Below are positions 1-4,860 of a stretch of DNA of 4,952 nt, in pieces (the stretch's first letter is position 1; each line of letters opens with the position of its first letter). The position numbers were made by a program, and so were the translations under genes. Under the pieces are notes generated by a model. The model saw nothing but the letters and a program-made list of their open reading frames with translations. It ran no database searches and was not told where the DNA came from. The stretch lies in the IMG/VR virus record IMGVR_UViG_2713896771_000019; one strand, 5' to 3'. Source of the stretch: a virus. Its lineage: Duplodnaviria > Heunggongvirae > Uroviricota > Caudoviricetes.

Positions 1-1253
1 GAACGGATGCACCCCCATAAAGCCGTGTGATTTTCCGTCTTGTTCCCGGCCTCCTCTATGCGCTCCAGTTCAGCAGGGGCGCGGGGAACGTCAATCACCA
101 CCATGGACACAATCTCTTCGCCATCGGTATCGGTGAACACCTCCACGCTTTTAAGGTCGTATGCGCTCTCTTTTGGCTCCTCTGCGTCCTTCATCTTCGT
201 ACATGCCGCCACCAGTGCTGTAACGTCTGAATTTTCCCGGCCGATTCGGTACTCTGCATCAAGCGCGGCACGGAATGCGCTGGAACCACGCGCCCCCTTT
301 GTTTCATCCTTGCCGGAATGGTGAACCACCAGCACCGTGGCCCCTGTAGCCTGCTTTATCGCGTCACACCCCTGGATAAATGCGCCCATATCACGGGAAT
401 CATTTTCATCATTCCCACCAAAGCAACGGGCCAGCGTGTCGATCACAATCAGCCGCACATTTTCGCCCGTTCTGCTCTTAACAAGTCCGGCAGTCCTGAT
501 AACCTGCTCCACATAGTCAGGCGATGCGGGAAAGACAGGCGCGTTAACGATGCACAAATCTGTAACCTCTTTTCCGTATGTTATCTCCCACGCCTTAACG
601 CGGCGTTTTACGCCCATACTGCCTTCGCCAGCGATATAGATAACAGCGCCCTTACTTACCCTGCGGCCTCCCCATGCCATACCTGTGGCAACATGGCACG
701 ACCAGGAAATAGCCAGGAACGATTTATAAGAACCGCTGGCCCCGTAGGTGCTGCATAATGACTCAGCCGGAATAAGCCCCTTAATTACGTAGCTTTGCTG
801 CGCGTCGAATCCCTCAGAACCCCATGAGATGGGAAGTGTGATTTTTCGCTTTCCACCATTCATGACCAGACTTTCCCCGCGTTCCCAGGTTTCTTTAAGT
901 CGCGGTAGTTGCTCGCTCCAGTCCTCCAGCAGTTCGAAATTCTCTGAAAGTAACCGTGCTTCCTGAACACCTGCGATCGCCAGTTTGGTGGCAATGGTCA
1001 GCATCTGCATATCGTCCAGGTTTCCGGCGCGTATGACCTTTGCTCTGTATCGTCCTTCATCAACAATCTGTAAATTGTCCAGTTCGCTTAACTGATAACG
1101 GCCCAGGTAAACCGGAGGGATGGGATCGCCTGCTTTTTTGGCCTGTGCAATCATGTAATGTTCTGCAAAGGAGTGAGCATTATCACCCGCAAAAATAACC
1201 GCCTCAGTGTGTTTATCTTTCGGTAACAGTTTTACGTTCGGTGCCAGTTTCAT
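1..1253 (-). CDS. RepA-like (AAA_25 / RecA-fold) ATPase, probable replication helicase; 3' end truncated by the window edge
   Basis: Manual translation of the minus strand from ATG at 1253-1251 gives at least 417 codons with no stop before position 1 (not in the supplied ORF track, presumably because it is incomplete). SD-like GAGGT lies 5 nt upstream, and an in-frame TAA lies 2 codons upstream of the ATG. Motifs seen: Walker-A-like GASGSYKS, Walker-B-like LIVIDTL, and VVHHSGKDETKGARGSSAFRAALD, which resembles the H-x-GK / RGSSA signature of RepA/AAA_25 helicases. The N-terminal ~150 aa has no motif I recognise. Confidence 0.7.
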   Translation of the reverse strand, partial: MKLAPNVKLLPKDKHTEAVIFAGDNAHSFAEHYMIAQAKKAGDPIPPVYLGRYQLSELDNLQIVDEGRYRAKVIRAGNLDDMQMLTIATKLAIAGVQEARLLSENFELLEDWSEQLPRLKETWERGESLVMNGGKRKITLPISWGSEGFDAQQSYVIKGLIPAESLCSTYGASGSYKSFLAISWSCHVATGMAWGGRRVSKGAVIYIAGEGSMGVKRRVKAWEITYGKEVTDLCIVNAPVFPASPDYVEQVIRTAGLVKSRTGENVRLIVIDTLARCFGGNDENDSRDMGAFIQGCDAIKQATGATVLVVHHSGKDETKGARGSSAFRAALDAEYRIGRENSDVTALVAACTKMKDAEEPKESAYDLKSVEVFTDTDGEEIVSMVVIDVPRAPAELERIEEAGNKTENHTALWGCIR

Positions 1254-1549
1254 TTTTTACCTCTGGATGCGCTGAGCATGCTTTTTATTTTCTTAATATT
1301 TTCCCGTGCTTTTTCCCTGCTGGTGGGCTTACCGCGTGTTGCGTTCTGTACCAGAGAAAAATCACGCCGGAACTGATAAACAGGCATCACGCAGTCATAG
1401 CCGTACCCATCACGGCGGTAAGTAACACACCGTCCCGCCACGCTTTTAATCGTTACAGTGCCGCCGTATTTATCTTTGAAAATATCGCCGGGGCGGATTT
1501 CAGGCCGAGAGAGGCCGCTGGCAGTAAAGCCAGAATTTTTCTGTTTCAT
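1250..1549 (-). CDS. Hypothetical small basic protein (99 aa), possible small beta-rich domain
   Basis: Complete ORF in the track. SD-like GGAGAA lies ~8 nt upstream of the ATG at 1549. Its TGA stop overlaps the ATG of the downstream ATPase (ATGA, 1250-1253), which suggests translational coupling. The motif PEIRPGDIFKDKYGGTVTIKSV...VTYRRDGY resembles small phage-associated domains of unknown function; that assignment is tentative. Confidence 0.55.
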   Translation of the reverse strand: MKQKNSGFTASGLSRPEIRPGDIFKDKYGGTVTIKSVAGRCVTYRRDGYGYDCVMPVYQFRRDFSLVQNATRGKPTSREKARENIKKIKSMLSASRGKK

Positions 1550-1554
1550 GGTTT

Positions 1555-1782
1555 TTATTCTCCGGTGTGATGCGTTTTATTATTCTCGTGAATTGCCATC
1601 ACCGTATTTAATTCGTTAATTACTGGCGTTAATAATGTGTGCACGGCAGAAAACATCATGGGATATGATTCATCGCCATTTTCCGGCACTTCCATTAACT
1701 TAAGTAATAATGCCTCCATTTCCTTTGCGCGGATTAATGCGTTTTCAGAATGAATAAGAACATCAAAAGGTATTTTATGCAT
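1555..1782 (-). CDS. Hypothetical protein (75 aa from the ATG at 1782; the ORF extends to 1818)
   Basis: The track ORF 1555..1818 starts at an ATG with no SD. The internal ATG at 1782-1780 has GGGAGA ~8 nt upstream and overlaps the upstream gene by only 8 bp, so 1782 is the preferred start. No recognisable motifs. Confidence 0.45.
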   Translation of the reverse strand: MHKIPFDVLIHSENALIRAKEMEALLLKLMEVPENGDESYPMMFSAVHTLLTPVINELNTVMAIHENNKTHHTGE

Positions 1783-2005
1783 CACACAGTTTCTCCCTGA
1801 TTCTTTTAGTGTCCTCATTGAGGATGTCTGTAGCTTTTGTCAGTGAGTTTTTGGTAATTATTTTTATTGTTTTAAATTTTCTTTTGTCGTACTCCGACTG
1901 TGATTTCTTCTCCATAATCTCTACCATGCAATTTATATCCACAAGCGCATGTATCAGTACTTTCAATGCTTCGCCTGCTGCGTCCGGCGTGTTTTTATTG
2001 CACAT
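1775..2005 (-). CDS. Hypothetical protein (76 aa), Lys/Glu-rich
   Basis: Complete ORF in the track. A perfect AGGAGG SD lies 6 nt upstream of the ATG at 2005-2003. The start overlaps the 3' end of the upstream ORF by 11 bp. No recognisable motifs. Confidence 0.5.
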   Translation of the reverse strand: MCNKNTPDAAGEALKVLIHALVDINCMVEIMEKKSQSEYDKRKFKTIKIITKNSLTKATDILNEDTKRIREKLCDA

Positions 2006-2201
2006 GATGCACCTCCTGACGAATACGGGCGGCGAATACCATCACGCAGCCATCAGGAGATTGCTGGCGGGCTTCCTGTTCGCTGGTGGCCTCGATGGTA
2101 ATCACGCGCGGCTGTGCCGTGCTCAGGGCGATAAAACGCCAGATGTATTTATTCAGGTTGTGCGAGTCCCGCCCTTGCGGGTGTGTGGTATGATTTCTCA
2201 T
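1995..2201 (-). CDS. Small protein (68 aa), putative Icd-like (P4-type host cell division inhibitor-like), first gene of the minus-strand operon
   Basis: This is the C-terminal in-frame part of the 308-aa track ORF 1995..2921. The internal ATG at 2201-2199 is preceded by GAGGT. Manual translation: MRNHTTHPQGRDSHNLNKYIWRFIALSTAQPRVITIEATSEQEARQQSPDGCVMVFAARIRQEVHHVQ. The W-x-F-x-A ... EARxx ... FAAR pattern matches my recollection of Icd-like proteins in P4-like prophages; this is unverified. Confidence 0.45.
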   Translation of the reverse strand: MRNHTTHPQGRDSHNLNKYIWRFIALSTAQPRVITIEATSEQEARQQSPDGCVMVFAARIRQEVHHVQ

Positions 2202-2296
2202 AGCTACCTCGATACTTTCGCTATCGTTGGTGGTTAGAGGCTGCGAAAGGACGGCAATCCTTTCCAGCCTCGTTTGCATTGAGTGATAGTTACTCA

Positions 2297-2377
2297 ACTG
2301 GATTCCAGTATAATCACCAAGTGGAATCCACTTCAAGCATTTTGTTTTGGTCTTTTTCGTGTATACTGGATTCCAGT
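2297..2377. promoter_or_regulatory. Divergent switch region with three palindromic operator-like sites (consensus TGGAWTCCA)
   Basis: ACTGGATTCCAGT at 2297-2309 and again at 2365-2377 are identical 13-bp palindromes. GTGGAATCCAC at 2321-2331 is an 11-bp palindrome with the same half-sites. TATAAT at 2309-2314 and TATACT at 2362-2367 abut sites 1 and 3 on the plus strand. The region lies between the divergent 59-aa ORF and the minus-strand operon. Confidence 0.5.
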
Positions 2378-2397
2378 AATCACAAAGGAAACCAGAA

Positions 2398-2577
2398 ATG
2401 GAAAGAGACCATATCAATAACAAATCACAGAAATTACAGGCTCGCGCCCCGCATGAAGTTGTTGAGGCAATGGAGCAAGTCAAAGAAACGGGCGAGAGTA
2501 CTGCGCAGTTTATCGTTACAGCCATGCGTGGCGAGATCAAACGCCGCCAGCGGCGCAAGGCCAAAGAGCAGGAATAG
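2398..2577 (+). CDS. Small basic protein (59 aa), candidate DNA-binding regulator of the switch
   Basis: Found by manual translation (below the size cut-off of the ORF track): MERDHINNKSQKLQARAPHEVVEAMEQVKETGESTAQFIVTAMRGEIKRRQRRKAKEQE. AAGGAA SD lies 7 nt upstream of the ATG. A 7-bp stem-loop (2582-2600) follows the TAG stop, and a strong intrinsic terminator lies ~100 bp further downstream. It is transcribed divergently from the operon across the operator palindromes. Confidence 0.5.
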   Translation: MERDHINNKSQKLQARAPHEVVEAMEQVKETGESTAQFIVTAMRGEIKRRQRRKAKEQE

Positions 2578-2680
2578 CCCCACCGGAATTTTTTTCCGGT
2601 TACGCTTTGCCCACCAGCCGCAAATGTGGCATTGTTGGCTATGCTCATGCGTTGGGGATAACGCGCAATTAGTGTTGAAG

Positions 2681-2709
2681 GGCCACCGTAGCGGGTGGCC
2701 TTTGTTTTG
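2681..2709 (+). terminator. Rho-independent terminator (plus strand)
   Basis: Stem GGCCACC (2681-2687), loop GTAGCG, stem GGTGGCC (2694-2700), then TTTGTTTTG. No T-run on the opposite strand. Confidence 0.7.
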
Positions 2710-2746
2710 CCTGTTATCCGGCAATTGTGGCGCTTCGTCACACGGT

Positions 2747-2755
2747 TGATATAAT
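2747..2755 (+). promoter_or_regulatory. Extended -10 promoter element TGATATAAT (plus strand)
   Basis: TGnTATAAT is matched exactly at 2747-2755. The -35 is weak (TTGTGG at 2725-2730, 19-bp spacer). No protein-coding gene follows on the plus strand. Confidence 0.4.
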
Positions 2756-2761
2756 TTCCCT

Positions 2762-2832
2762 GCACTGATCCATTTTTTTCGCAGCAGGTTAATTGTTCAG
2801 AAAGGCGGCTCATTATCGGGGCCGCTTTTTTT
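2762..2832 (+). ncRNA. Candidate ~70-nt small RNA (orphan promoter-to-terminator unit)
   Basis: Predicted start ~7 nt after the extended -10; ends at the terminator 2801-2832. There is no ATG-initiated ORF in the interval. Purely structural inference. Confidence 0.25.
2801..2832 (+). terminator. Rho-independent terminator (plus strand; weak T-run on the minus side as well)
   Basis: AAAGGCGGC (2801-2809), loop, GCCGC (2821-2825), followed by seven T (2826-2832). The stem is 9-11 bp including G-U pairs. Confidence 0.65.
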
Positions 2833-2836
2833 ATGC

Positions 2837-2866
2837 CTGAAAAACACCAATTTTGTGGTTTTTCAG
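2837..2866. repeat. Perfect 9-bp inverted repeat CTGAAAAAC / GTTTTTCAG with a 12-nt spacer
   Basis: CTGAAAAAC at 2837-2845 and GTTTTTCAG at 2858-2866 are exact reverse complements. It sits immediately after the terminator. Confidence 0.5.
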
Positions 2867-2973
2867 TTTCACCAGGCCGAACGAAGCCCCGCCCCTGTAC
2901 GGGCGCATATCCAGTATTCATGGTTAGATCTCTGTATTAGTGGATGGGTGGCGGCTGTGTGCCGCCAGCCTGA

Positions 2974-3162
2974 TTAGTGAACTGCCTCGCAGCTGTCTTT
3001 CCATGCCAGAACTTCGGATAAAGACCAGCCAACGGAACGACCGCCGAGCTTACGCCGTGATGGGAATTGTCCGGCTTTTTCCAGGCGGTACCGACATGAG
3101 CGGCTCAGGCCTGTAAGTTGCTGACATTCTTTTTCACGTATAAAGCGATCTGTGCTTAACAC
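2974..3162 (-). CDS. alpA: AlpA/Vis-family phage transcriptional regulator (62 aa, MerR-like HTH)
   Basis: Track ORF; the start codon is GTG at 3162-3160, preceded by a strong SD AAGGGGG (4 nt spacer). The motif LTGLSRSCRYRLEKAGQFPSRRKLGGRSVGWSLSEVLAW matches the AlpA-family signature (HTH ... FP ... LG.RSVGW...E...W). It lies downstream of, and in the same orientation as, the integrase, as in P4-like elements. Confidence 0.8.
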   Translation of the reverse strand: MLSTDRFIREKECQQLTGLSRSCRYRLEKAGQFPSRRKLGGRSVGWSLSEVLAWKDSCEAVH

Positions 3163-3192
3163 AATTCCCCCTTTGTTGTTTCTTAAAGAGTC

Positions 3193-3240
3193 ATTGGGTG
3201 GGTTATTGGGTTGGGTTGTGTCGGATTGTGTCAGGGTGTT
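3193..3240. repeat. G/T-rich degenerate repeats (TTGGGT x3, TTGTGTC x2) in 10-bp register, upstream of the alpA start
   Basis: TTGGGT at 3194, 3206 and 3211; (G/A)TTGTGTC at 3215-3222 and 3225-3232. The region is 30-80 bp upstream of the alpA GTG on the minus strand, so it falls in the alpA promoter region. Confidence 0.45.
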
Positions 3241-3325
3241 TATGGAATGGCAAACAGTGATGTGGTGTTCGTCGCTGAAATAGGCGCAATTAGAAAAAAA
3301 CTATTTTGATTCATTTGGATACAAA

Positions 3326-3355
3326 GGCGTAAAATTCTGCATTTACGCCTTTTTT
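3326..3355. terminator. Bidirectional rho-independent terminator between int and alpA
   Basis: GGCGTAAA (3326-3333), 8-nt loop, TTTACGCC (3342-3349), then TTTTTT (3350-3355) on the plus strand. On the minus strand the same hairpin is followed by TTTGTAT. Confidence 0.65.
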
Positions 3356-3408
3356 ACATATTTTTAAGATTGATTCGCCAATGTACAAAAAAACAGTAAA
3401 CCACCAGA

Positions 3409-3457: not shown

Positions 3458-3517
3458 TTGTTCCAGATTGTTCGCCGTTGTTCGTCGTTGTGTCTCGTTG
3501 TTTCACGTTGTGTCCGT
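3458..3517. repeat. Six tandem 10-bp repeats TTGT(T/G)(T/C)CNCG directly downstream of the int stop
   Basis: Units: ttgttccaga, ttgttcgccg, ttgttcgtcg, ttgtgtctcg, ttgtttcacg, ttgtgtccgt, contiguous with perfect 10-bp register. The array ends ~20 bp from the int TAA (3539-3541). Confidence 0.7.
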
Positions 3518-3538
3518 TCTGAAAAATCGCGAAAAAAA

Positions 3539-4789
3539 TTATATTTCTCTGGCTATTGGCAGTGTGGTTACGTTTTCGTGAGCACCTGCCAGTATCTCTA
3601 ATCGCTCTGTCCACATATCCAGCGCATTACGTTTCGCATCGATATAACGGGAGTGGTTATAGACTCGTTGCATCCCTGGCATCTGGTGAGCGGTGAGTTG
3701 TTCGACAATATGTGGATCCACGCCTAAATCGTTCAGCATCGTGGTAAACGTGCGCCGTATATCGTGTAGTGACCAGTGCGGATGGTTTAATTTTTTGTGC
3801 GTGAATCTGCCGTATTGCGACACGCTGGCTTCCTGTTTCAGTTCCCCGAGTAATAGCCCTGTGTGCCTGTTCTGCTCCACCAGCTGTGTGACGAACGGCA
3901 AAATGCTTTCCGGTATTGGCCTGAATATGGCGACCTTCGTTTTGCTGTGCTCTTTCGGTACTGTCCAGAGCATTTCCTTAAAATCCCACTCCCTGATCTC
4001 CGACAGCCTCAGTTCTCCGGTCCGGCAGCCGAACACAATCAGGAGGCGGATTAGTGCGCTGTAGTAGGGCGGGAATATTTTTTTATCCAGCGCCTGTAAT
4101 AATTCGCTCAGTTCTTTGTTGCTCAGCACGCGTTCGCTTATGCCCGGCTTTTTGCCAACGTCCACCACGTTGAGATCATCCAGAACGTTACTGACTGCGT
4201 AGCGACGTTTACGGCAGAACTTAAGCGCCTGTTTACACGCCTGCATCATGTGGCCAGATGTTACGGGTGATTTTTTGCGTATCCGGTCAAAACAGGCCAG
4301 CCAGTGACGTAACTCGCATTTATCCAGTGGCATATTGCCAATATGCTGTATGACGTGATTATTAAGGCGGCTTTTCAGGCATACGTAATCGACACGGTTT
4401 TCCTTTACGTGCATTTCCAGCCAGTAGCTGATCGCATCGCCCACCGTTACCGGCTTTAGTGCTTCCTGTATGGAGTAATTAAGCTCATGGCGTGGATTTT
4501 TTCCTTCTGCCAGCCATGCGCGACACTGTGCTGCTTTTTCCCTGGCTGCTTTCAGGCTCAGATCAGGATAATTTCCCAGTTTCAGGCGTTCCGGTGATAC
4601 CTGGCGTCCTGTTCCTGCCCTGTAGGTGAAATACCAGGTTAACAGGCCGCTGGTGGAGTGTCTGATACTCAGATTTCCACCGTCATTAAGAAAGGTGGTT
4701 TTTTGGGCTGGTGTGCCGTTGATTTTTCTTAGCTGCGTGTCGCTCAGTTTGTTAAGTGCCCTGCTCATAATTTTGAATCCGGTCATCAC
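3539..4789 (-). CDS. int: P4-family tyrosine site-specific integrase (416 aa)
   Basis: Track ORF. The N-terminal arm-binding-like region (LSDTQLRK...FLNDGGNLSIR...YFTYRAGTGRQVSPERLKLGNYPDLSLKAAREKA) resembles P4-type integrases. The C-terminal catalytic region carries the tyrosine-recombinase signatures GCRTGELRLSE, HDIRRTF and a Tyr in RVYNHSRY. The first codon at 4789 is GTG; alternative ATG starts lie at 4786 and 4768, none with a clear SD. Confidence 0.9.
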   Translation of the reverse strand: MMTGFKIMSRALNKLSDTQLRKINGTPAQKTTFLNDGGNLSIRHSTSGLLTWYFTYRAGTGRQVSPERLKLGNYPDLSLKAAREKAAQCRAWLAEGKNPRHELNYSIQEALKPVTVGDAISYWLEMHVKENRVDYVCLKSRLNNHVIQHIGNMPLDKCELRHWLACFDRIRKKSPVTSGHMMQACKQALKFCRKRRYAVSNVLDDLNVVDVGKKPGISERVLSNKELSELLQALDKKIFPPYYSALIRLLIVFGCRTGELRLSEIREWDFKEMLWTVPKEHSKTKVAIFRPIPESILPFVTQLVEQNRHTGLLLGELKQEASVSQYGRFTHKKLNHPHWSLHDIRRTFTTMLNDLGVDPHIVEQLTAHQMPGMQRVYNHSRYIDAKRNALDMWTERLEILAGAHENVTTLPIAREI

Positions 4790-4790
4790 A

Positions 4791-4814
4791 ATTAACTACA
4801 CCATTAACTACACC
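4791..4814. repeat. Perfect 12-bp tandem duplication ATTAACTACACC x2, immediately upstream of the int start
   Basis: Copies at 4791-4802 and 4803-4814 are identical and abut the int start codon region (4786-4789). Confidence 0.7.
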
Positions 4815-4830
4815 GATCATTGCACAAGGG

Positions 4831-4860
4831 GGTACAACGTGGAACAAGCTGGAACAAGAA
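4831..4860. repeat. Three tandem 10-bp repeats GG(T/A)ACAA(C/G)NT upstream of int, the inverse of the array downstream of int
   Basis: Units ggtacaacgt, ggaacaagct, ggaacaagaa. Read on the minus strand they give CTTGTTCCAG / CTTGTTCCAC / GTTGTACC, sharing the 9-mer TTGTTCCAG (plus 3458-3466; minus 4857-4849) and CACGTTGT (plus 3504-3511; minus 4841-4834) with the 3458-3517 array. Confidence 0.65.

Follow-up and report, generated by a model that had tools for sequence, protein, structure and literature searches.

A candidate small-RNA gene opposite the alpA read-through region of Escherichia coli phage-inducible chromosomal islands

What does the short stretch at positions 2747-2832 of IMG/VR virus record IMGVR_UViG_2713896771_000019 encode, where a promoter-like element is followed closely by a terminator between alpA and a divergent regulatory switch? 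The window analysed here, meaning the whole stretch of 4,952 nucleotides (nt), is by its gene content an Escherichia coli phage-inducible chromosomal island (PICI), of the PICI or capsid-forming PICI type, and an earlier note had proposed at this place an orphan promoter-to-terminator unit giving a plus-strand small RNA (sRNA) of about 70 nt. Our analysis supports the candidate: with good confidence, 2747-2832 is probably a real, expressed and independently transcribed sRNA gene of E. coli PICIs and capsid-forming PICIs. It is not an orphan, since as read from the sequence two promoter-to-terminator units stand here in tandem (units 1 and 2) and it is the second, and an sRNA gene placed in this way on a mobile element could act as a brake on PICI induction. 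The parts of unit 2 are as follows.

2704..2746, plus strand: conserved block upstream of the -10, of low variability in 57 distinct variants and in alignments
2747-2755, plus strand: extended -10 element TGATATAAT, with TG at 2747-2748 and the hexamer at 2750-2755
2762..2832, plus strand: predicted sRNA of about 69-71 nt, with a predicted start at G2762 or A2764 (7-9 nt after the -10) and a predicted 3' end at 2826-2832
2781..2800, plus strand: single-stranded core GCAGCAGGTTAATTGTTCAG, nearly invariant and a putative pairing region, with a U-run at 2773-2779 just 5' of it
2799..2832, plus strand: intrinsic terminator with a 13-bp stem, a 7-bp G+C core, a 7-nt loop and seven U

The extended -10 is, as had been claimed, perfect, and it is the sole perfect TGNTATAAT on either strand of the window. 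A perfect match is expected 0.16 times per window and at least one occurred in 29 of 200 shuffled sequences, so that the lone TGATATAAT is not significant by itself. The joint chance of finding it with a terminator-like site on the same strand within about 90 nt is about 0.008 per window (0.16 x (5.7 x 90 / 9904)), a figure that is rough arithmetic from the counts of the promoter-motif and terminator scans; the actual distance from the -10 to the unit-2 terminator is 43 nt. A usable -35 is absent upstream, GTGGCG standing at 17-nt spacing, and for this reason the promoter scan did not list TGATATAAT. The block upstream of the -10 contains an inverted repeat, TTGCC-N8-GGCAA at 2707-2724, and may have a regulatory role, or may just be the end of the unit-1 terminator.

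The strong plus-strand terminator with a 7-T tail is likewise present. Its core pairs 2805-2811 with 2819-2825 around a loop at 2812-2818, seven T follow at 2826-2832, and the hairpin 2799-2831 folds with -18.0 kcal/mol on the plus strand vs -9.8 kcal/mol on the minus strand. It escaped a simple terminator scan because, once the A-rich 5' flank has paired with the T-run, too few T are left for the rule of that scan. Across related islands the hairpin occurs in two versions of equal length whose registers are offset by one, GGCGGCUC...GGGGCCGC and GCGCUCCG-GNRA-CGGGGCGC; both were aligned together. With 18 distinct variants per version, 97.2% and 99.1% of cells pair, compared with 39-75% when the partner is slid. 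Most single stem changes are G-U compatible, and each version holds one fully compensated pair (C:G via U:G to U:A in one, C:G to A:U in the other). In all 36 variants it is the plus strand that gives the stabler terminator (about -19 vs about -11 kcal/mol), a difference of about 8 kcal/mol that results from its invariant G-U pairs, and this bias argues that the constrained molecule is a plus-strand RNA. Folding of 2763-2832 gives -19.2 kcal/mol (z = -2.6), with the 5' two-thirds largely unpaired ahead of the terminator hairpin. The predicted product is thus an RNA of about 70 nt with a variable 5' end, a U-run, an unpaired and almost invariant core GCAGYRGGUUAAUUGUUC, a terminator hairpin and a U tail.

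Conservation of both the promoter element and the terminator stem in related elements had been named as the test of the proposal, and both are kept in about 40 variants. The 132 nt of 2704-2835, or their 3' half, are matched in 1091 of 5426 complete E. coli genomes, with a 100% match in E. coli E423; 285 of the 1091 cover at least 80% of this interval, and most of the remaining matches, including those of O157:H7 and Nissle 1917, are limited to the core and terminator at 2780-2835. EcCICFT073, prophage Sp7 of O157 Sakai and Nissle 1917 are among the carriers of the unit or of its 3' half. Pattern scans of IMG/VR used as anchor either the core (more than 120 loci), which puts no bias on the promoter, or the promoter (80 loci), which puts no bias on the RNA body. 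The -10 is fixed across about 40 distinct type-A variants, in which adjacent bases drift and GATATAA is invariant; the core-anchored two-unit variants carry TATAAT in all cases except one (TATAAC), and one locus (L002) has GG for TG. Conversely, in 40 of the 42 distinct sequences downstream of the anchored promoter, the RNA follows. GGTTAATTGTTC is exact in 37 of these 40 distinct RNA bodies, GCAGYRGGTTAATTGTTC is nearly invariant across about 40 variants, and the most variable stretch of the promoter-anchored RNAs is formed by the first ~15 transcribed bases; O157-type copies carry GGTTATCTGTTC in the core. Conservation of the cassette exceeds that of its neighbours, and it has been shuffled between islands whose int, alpA and rep alleles differ, at a constant site that has a YlcI-like gene on one side and alpA or BRO-N on the other. 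The core scan of species-representative genomes gave only a chance match in Paenibacillus, the family being absent from these genomes, and the unit query had no match in 50,697 phage records.

Unit 1 lies directly upstream in the same orientation.

2607-2708, plus strand: unit 1, with TTGCCC at 2607-2612, a 17-nt spacer, TGG-CATTGT (-10 at 2630-2635) and a terminator at 2678-2703, followed by TTTGTTTT

It is probably a sibling sRNA, and its terminator stem also exists in compensatory versions (GGCCACC/GGTGGCC vs GGCGACC/GGTCGCC). The promoter box of unit 1, TTGCCCACCAGCC, has a much wider distribution than the rest and is met in three arrangements, namely unit 1 only, a hybrid single unit and two units; some islands thus carry unit 1 alone. 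With the 17-nt spacing kept, the TTGCCC box precedes TATGAT in locus L004 and TATCAT in O157, Nissle and locus L016, and in these last three it stands directly upstream of a predicted RNA of about 82 nt that has a 5' hairpin and ends in the unit-2 core and terminator. Two different promoters are therefore fused to one core and terminator, which is the strongest argument that the core is transcribed.

The earlier note had further stated that no ATG-initiated open reading frame (ORF) lies between promoter and terminator. This stands for the plus strand, where 2756-2832 contains neither ATG nor GTG and one TTG (2794) with no convincing Shine-Dalgarno sequence. It was incomplete for the minus strand, on which a long stop-free frame crosses the unit, and this conserved frame, which had been missed, changes the likely mechanism. 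The frame and the genes around it are listed here; those from the integrase to the RepA helicase make up the recognisable island gene set of int, alpA, YlcI/YnfO-like, Icd-like, DUF4222 and RepA helicase genes found by the ORF listing and family scans.

1995..2921, minus strand: stop-free frame of 308 codons, which starts 53 nt after the alpA stop and ends as the 68-residue Icd-like ORF (2201..1995)
4789..3539, minus strand: tyrosine integrase gene int (ORF listing and family scans)
3162..2974, minus strand: alpA, Phage_AlpA family (Pfam PF05930, 65.8 bits), convergent with the sRNA unit
2398-2577, plus strand: 59-residue YlcI/YnfO-family gene (NCBIfam NF041551, 72.3 bits), upstream of and co-oriented with both RNA units
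2201..1995, minus strand: 68-residue Icd-like gene (ORF listing and family scans)
2005..1775, minus strand: small ORF of 76 residues (ORF listing)
1818..1555, minus strand: small ORF of 87 residues (ORF listing)
1549..1250, minus strand: DUF4222 gene (family scan)
1253..3, minus strand: RepA-type helicase gene (family scan)

In antisense, the 308-codon frame passes through the two sRNA units, the YlcI/YnfO gene and, between this gene and the icd operon, the divergent promoter region, which has palindromic operators. In 122 distinct loci its median open length is 363 codons and 93% exceed 150 codons, compared with medians of 12-13 codons in the other two frames, and for 47 of 77 distinct spacing classes, vs one third expected, it is in register with the Icd-like domain. 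The alpA stop is usually followed at a short distance by an ATG, in many cases with GAGG, and two of the three main classes have this leader ATG 48-51 nt upstream of the core, a few nt from the sRNA 3' end. As to the transcript on this strand, alpA is its likely source. The alpA promoter of EcCICFT073 is activated by AlpA itself, and dependence on AlpA is also reported for reporters that sit behind the alpA stop and on ORF3; over-expression of AlpA leads to runaway replication, and no repressor is known (PMC6092414). EcCICFT073 carries the two-unit cassette. Given this AlpA-dependent read-through and the lack of a known repressor, we propose a cis-antisense brake on the path from alpA to the replication genes.

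Building on the observed sequence elements, their conservation, strand-specific structure and location and on the open frame opposite them, such a brake might work in the following way. The extended -10, which needs no -35, would start transcription near 2762, and the intrinsic terminator would stop it at about 2829-2832. Transcripts from the AlpA-autoactivated alpA promoter would continue toward the icd-replication operon and would bear the stop-free leader frame, which apparently needs to be translated. The sRNA and its upstream twin, unit 1, are perfectly complementary to the first part of this leader frame, and their pairing in vivo might block or uncouple its translation or trigger cleavage by RNase III, so that leaky read-through would be aborted before the icd-replication genes. 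In this way the positive-feedback loop of the island would be kept off as long as no helper phage drives alpA strongly. As a whole, the statement that the sRNA gene includes such a brake on read-through is one that we hold tentatively, at somewhat less than an even chance. We further speculate, with considerably more reserve, that the two plus-strand sRNAs and the stop-free, unconstrained minus-strand frame might together be the missing immunity or threshold device of Gram-negative PICIs. The otherwise meaningless leader ORF would, while translated, shield transcripts from termination en route to the icd-replication operon, and constitutive antisense sRNAs would pair with the start of this ORF and abort weak read-through, with firing only after the helper has boosted alpA. 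If true, this rather unlikely extension would describe an RNA-based, translation-coupled switch whose logic is analogous to P4 and P1 immunity, built from different parts and on the opposite strand.

Several findings weigh against the proposed brake or against parts of its basis. A near-invariant short core beside a variable 5' end is a classic signature of a trans-acting seed, and a cis-antisense RNA requires no such seed-like pattern of conservation. The icd operon has its own promoter in the switch region (2336..2307, minus strand, from the promoter scan), so that read-through may not be the main route to the replication genes. In the window itself 89 nt separate the sRNA 3' end from the first leader-frame ATG upstream of it (2921), so the initiation region is not covered by the sRNA here. 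The preserved register with the Icd-like domain is partly confounded, because indels in the plus-strand genes must be multiples of three. The covariation of the terminator is modest, 228 of 500 and 3 of 500 shuffles reaching the score for the two versions, which is due to the low diversity within each version. Finally, the Sakai homologue (complement of about 1,596,821-1,596,902, within Sp7 at 1,594,711-1,610,171) is absent from the EcOnc list (Tree et al. 2014), which has 64 orphan RNAs bound by Hfq in O157 Sakai but no entry in Sp7; the nearest ones are at 1,577,126 and 1,735,063. This homologue lies antisense inside the annotated gene ECs_1576 and may therefore have been excluded as not 'orphan'.

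Could the conservation be due to something other than an RNA gene? A genuine protein on the minus strand, with the plus-strand signals as its by-products, would account for the open frame and for the ATG after the alpA stop, and NCBI labels as 'Icd-like proteins' of 280-420 residues products that cover the sRNA region, with 1420 protein clusters matching the extension of the frame. A 308-residue NCBI protein from E. coli is identical to the long ORF of the window. However, the long frame shows no third-position excess, with variability of 0.128, 0.124 and 0.106 at codon positions 1, 2 and 3, and the ratio of nonsynonymous to synonymous polymorphism (pN/pS) is 0.58-1.14 in the sRNA part and 0.8-1.3 in the switch and leader, compared with 0.10-0.43 in the Icd part. 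The Icd domain occupies residues 259-302 of the 308, and no Pfam or NCBIfam domain was found outside the last 48 residues. Full-length identity among the matches falls as low as 39%, amino-acid identity dropping faster than nucleotide identity, and every named source among the 120 extension matches listed is E. coli; in addition, synonymous positions within the -10 are invariant. Stop-creating substitutions (7 of 31 vs 33% overall) were left unused as too noisy, since mosaic segments are not truly aligned. A minus-strand protein as the cause of the conservation is thus largely refuted and in our view very improbable, and only the openness of the frame seems, by these comparisons, to be under selection. 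It is also conceivable that there is no RNA gene at all, and that the hairpins are tandem terminators insulating the convergent YlcI (plus-strand) and int-alpA (minus-strand) transcripts, with TGATATAAT and the core as protein-binding DNA sites or chance. The unit does sit exactly at the point of convergence, TTGTTC-like motifs recur around alpA and int so that the core could be a DNA site, and the single perfect promoter motif carries little weight alone. However, unit 1 already offers the YlcI transcript a strong terminator, on the minus strand the hairpins make poor ones, and the invariance of the -10 amid drifting flanks goes unaccounted for; above all, the canonical promoter TTGCCC-N17-TATCAT joined to the same core and terminator in O157 and Nissle is hard to explain unless this module is transcribed. 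We therefore regard insulation without an RNA as unlikely.

If an sRNA is made, its target might lie elsewhere: a trans-acting, Hfq-type sRNA would use the unpaired core (GGUUAAUUGUUC and its flanks) as a seed for mRNAs of the host or helper phage, and its position next to alpA would be incidental. We hold this to be possible, and from the sequence features such a role is nearly as likely as the cis-antisense brake. The architecture is typical, with a variable 5' end and an invariant single strand just 5' of the terminator; seven U (in version 2, UUUUUGUU) follow a stable hairpin, and the unpaired UUAAUUGUUCAGAAA lies just upstream of it. The 3' module of core and terminator is the most widespread part and has two different promoters and 5' parts upstream, and the cassette moves among divergent islands, as expected for a target outside the island. 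Islands and prophages offer parallels in Esr41, AgvB/AsxR, DicF and the Pas RNAs. Against a trans-acting role stand the missing Hfq peak at the Sakai homologue, with the reservation made above for its antisense site, and the lack of a partner for the core. Duplex scans with the core and unit 1 against both strands of the window gave nothing above shuffled seeds and no prominent initiation region, the best non-self duplex having -24.7 kcal/mol (shuffled seeds -20 to -32) and the icd initiation region -13.9 kcal/mol. A search for exact complements in about 140 island loci found no consistent partner of the core and just two recurrent sites. One of these, a pairing of 8-12 bp between the U-run and the conserved rep start GGGGUAAAAAAUGAAAC (match AAAAAAUG), was rejected because the same site occurs where the sRNA has no U-run, and the other, in the primase gene, because it is uncoupled from the seed type. 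With no trans site above chance and the recurrent sites uncoupled, the opposite strand is therefore the only certain complementary RNA. A last reading would make the RNA a member of the P4 CI, P1 C4 or IsrK type of immunity RNAs, which are processed from the leader of a replication operon and cause premature termination by pairing with two sites. The setting speaks for it, as a satellite with the vis-like alpA and an Icd-like first gene is the usual C4/CI context, and its functional logic of RNA-controlled read-through into replication genes resembles that of the cis-antisense brake. We consider it scarcely credible nonetheless, because the unit is on the strand opposite to the icd-replication operon, has its own -10 and terminator instead of being processed, and matches no CI-type model; in duplex scans of the window no two leader target boxes (seqA/seqC or a'/b') complementary to the sRNA were found. 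The earlier note, which had seen no sequence evidence of homology to P4 CI, is thereby confirmed, the architecture that defines CI being absent as well.

Around the sRNA gene, some further sequence features were observed. Three collinear inverted-repeat blocks, ATATAATTT, ATTTTTTTCGC and ATTGTTCAGAAAGG, link 2749-2805 to 3514-3544 at the int stop; as a partial inverted copy of the sRNA gene this was rejected, since the distal arm tracks one integrase family and is still present where the sRNA is of type B or where variants mismatch, and the similarity is probably a coincidence of A/T-rich sequence. Directly after the unit-2 terminator, 2837-2866 forms an A/T-rich palindrome, CTGAAAAACACCAA/TTGTGGTTTTTCAG, which is kept in islands with the same alpA allele, and the 33 nt at 2873-2905 (CACCAGGCCGAACGAAGCCCCGCCCCTGTACGG) recur with 100% identity within antirepressor genes (antA/antB) that are annotated in other E. 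coli genomes. Between alpA and int, a third plus-strand hairpin with a T-run lies at 3284-3357 (3323-3333/3342-3352, then TTTTT). It is kept in four related islands, with the stem re-registered in O157, and is preceded by the box GCGCAATTAG, which is also present in unit 1 (2663-2672); this region may be another small plus-strand RNA, antisense to the region upstream of alpA. Clusters of RTTGTKYC repeats (TTGTTC-like; 7 found vs 1.9 expected) with about 10-nt spacing at 3175-3232 and 3487-3514, plus strand, stand around the alpA promoter region and after the int stop, and are likely bound by a protein, be it AlpA, Int or some other factor. Just outside the int start, tandem direct repeats at 4791-4814 and 4841-4858 (ATTAACTACACC x2 and GGAACAAG x2) are likely arm-type or att-proximal binding sites.

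On the other side of the cassette, the divergent switch at 2298-2376 contains the palindrome CTGGATTCCAG at 2298-2308 and 2366-2376 and GTGGAATCCAC at 2321-2331. Both copies of CTGGATTCCAG overlap TATACT -10 boxes (2307-2312, minus strand; 2362-2367, plus strand), and the palindromes probably serve the YlcI/YnfO-like protein as operators. The Icd-like gene has a structured leader (2272..2200, minus strand) with a sub-threshold match over the full model length to an R1162-like plasmid antisense RNA (28.8 bits vs a gathering score of 55, E = 0.053). In annotated complete E. coli relatives the gene order of the window is kept and is continued by SSB, PerC and capsid genes, and in every annotated locus compared a YlcI-like gene stands upstream of the RNA units in unchanged order. 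The copy in O157 Sakai, 'prophage Sp7', adjoins roxA, and EcCICFT073, the prototype from strain CFT073, occupies the same site. Several islands have a second small plus-strand ORF after the YlcI-like gene, which stops just before the TTGCCC box; two examples from the comparison of islands are given below. In O157 SS52, the Prokaryotic Genome Annotation Pipeline (PGAP) annotates a minus-strand pseudogene in place of a plus-strand ribbon-helix-helix-like gene.

3040-3230 of locus L008 (O157 SS52), plus strand: second small ORF
3743-3916 of locus L161 (CFT073), plus strand: second small ORF

Virulence and defence genes are moved by the PICIs and capsid-forming PICIs of E. coli, which are widespread as satellites. 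They need AlpA for induction, and no repressor that holds the loop off has been identified (PMC6092414). About 20% of complete E. coli genomes carry the sRNA cassette, and so do the prototype islands EcCICFT073 and EcCIEDL933/Sp7, which are tractable in experiments. Being conserved opposite the alpA read-through, the cassette is therefore a concrete and testable candidate for the missing control of induction. If it acts in trans instead, it would add a widely distributed sRNA of the accessory genome to the E. coli repertoire, carried by Nissle 1917, CFT073 and O157:H7. In addition, hundreds of NCBI annotations of long Icd-like proteins have N-terminal extensions without protein-level constraint that are largely antisense to regulatory RNA and DNA elements, and the stop-free frame behind these annotations is itself a selectable feature.

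How, then, does this RNA relate to known ones? The Rfam 15 covariance scan of the window and of the O157 form gave at E <= 10 no match to C4 (RF01695), IsrK (RF01394), Esr41 (RF02676), AgvB (RF02702), AsxR (RF02703), STnc100 (RF02076) or any other relevant family, and the sRNA-type matches were confined to the terminator and far under gathering scores (STnc50 19.6-23.1 vs 55; MicX 18.9 vs 75). An RNA at this site is not described in the PICI literature, and the core searched as a text string returned nothing relevant. The unit is thus most likely undescribed as far as the literature, Rfam and EcOnc were searched, strain-specific catalogues lying outside that search. Two named RNAs were considered and set aside: EcOnc33 (about 71 nt) is at 1,557,089 in the NanS-like gene region of the lambdoid prophage Sp6 and not in the island, and PasB, a widespread prophage sRNA of phage structural operons that is present in phage genomes (Zhu, Shabalina and Storz preprint), differs by this description from a unit that matches 0 of the 50,697 phage records. 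Like unit 2, Esr41/EcOnc14, AgvB, AsxR and PasA-D are short, terminator-ended, horizontally acquired and patchy among E. coli, and they combine variable 5' parts with conserved 3' modules; this group sits in lambdoid prophages or SpLE1, whereas unit 2 sits in PICI satellites (Sp7 in Sakai). The Spr sRNAs, which Pichon and Felden reportedly described in 2005 from pathogenicity islands of Staphylococcus aureus, are also carried by phage-related chromosomal islands, but these are Gram-positive, and the sequences are unrelated and the position in the island is another one.

The P4 CI RNA (PMC4825925), together with P1-P7 C4 and IsrK, resembles unit 2 in being an RNA regulator of a satellite or prophage that is located between excision or regulatory genes and an icd-headed or replication operon, and CI and C4 would share with it the proposed outcome, namely that transcription into the replication genes is aborted. 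However, CI and C4 are on the same strand as the operon, are cut from its leader and pair with two leader sites (seqA/seqC, a'/b'), whereas unit 2 is on the opposite strand with a promoter and terminator of its own.

In this last respect the OOP RNA of phage lambda is closer, a 77-nt antisense RNA made from promoter pO that ends at an intrinsic terminator and overlaps the 3' end of cII. Both are short, have their own promoter and Rho-independent terminator, are convergent with and fully complementary to an opposing transcript, and would, as proposed for unit 2, act by duplex formation. Unit 2 has no sequence relation to OOP and differs in belonging to a tandem pair, in its seed-like invariant core and in overlapping a stop-free leader frame after alpA that is unconstrained in sequence, instead of the 3' end of a protein gene. 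Nevertheless, one mark of an OOP-like cis-antisense gene is found here: a promoter and a terminator, recognised by sequence and conservation, that stand opposite a region transcribed in EcCICFT073 (PMC6092414).

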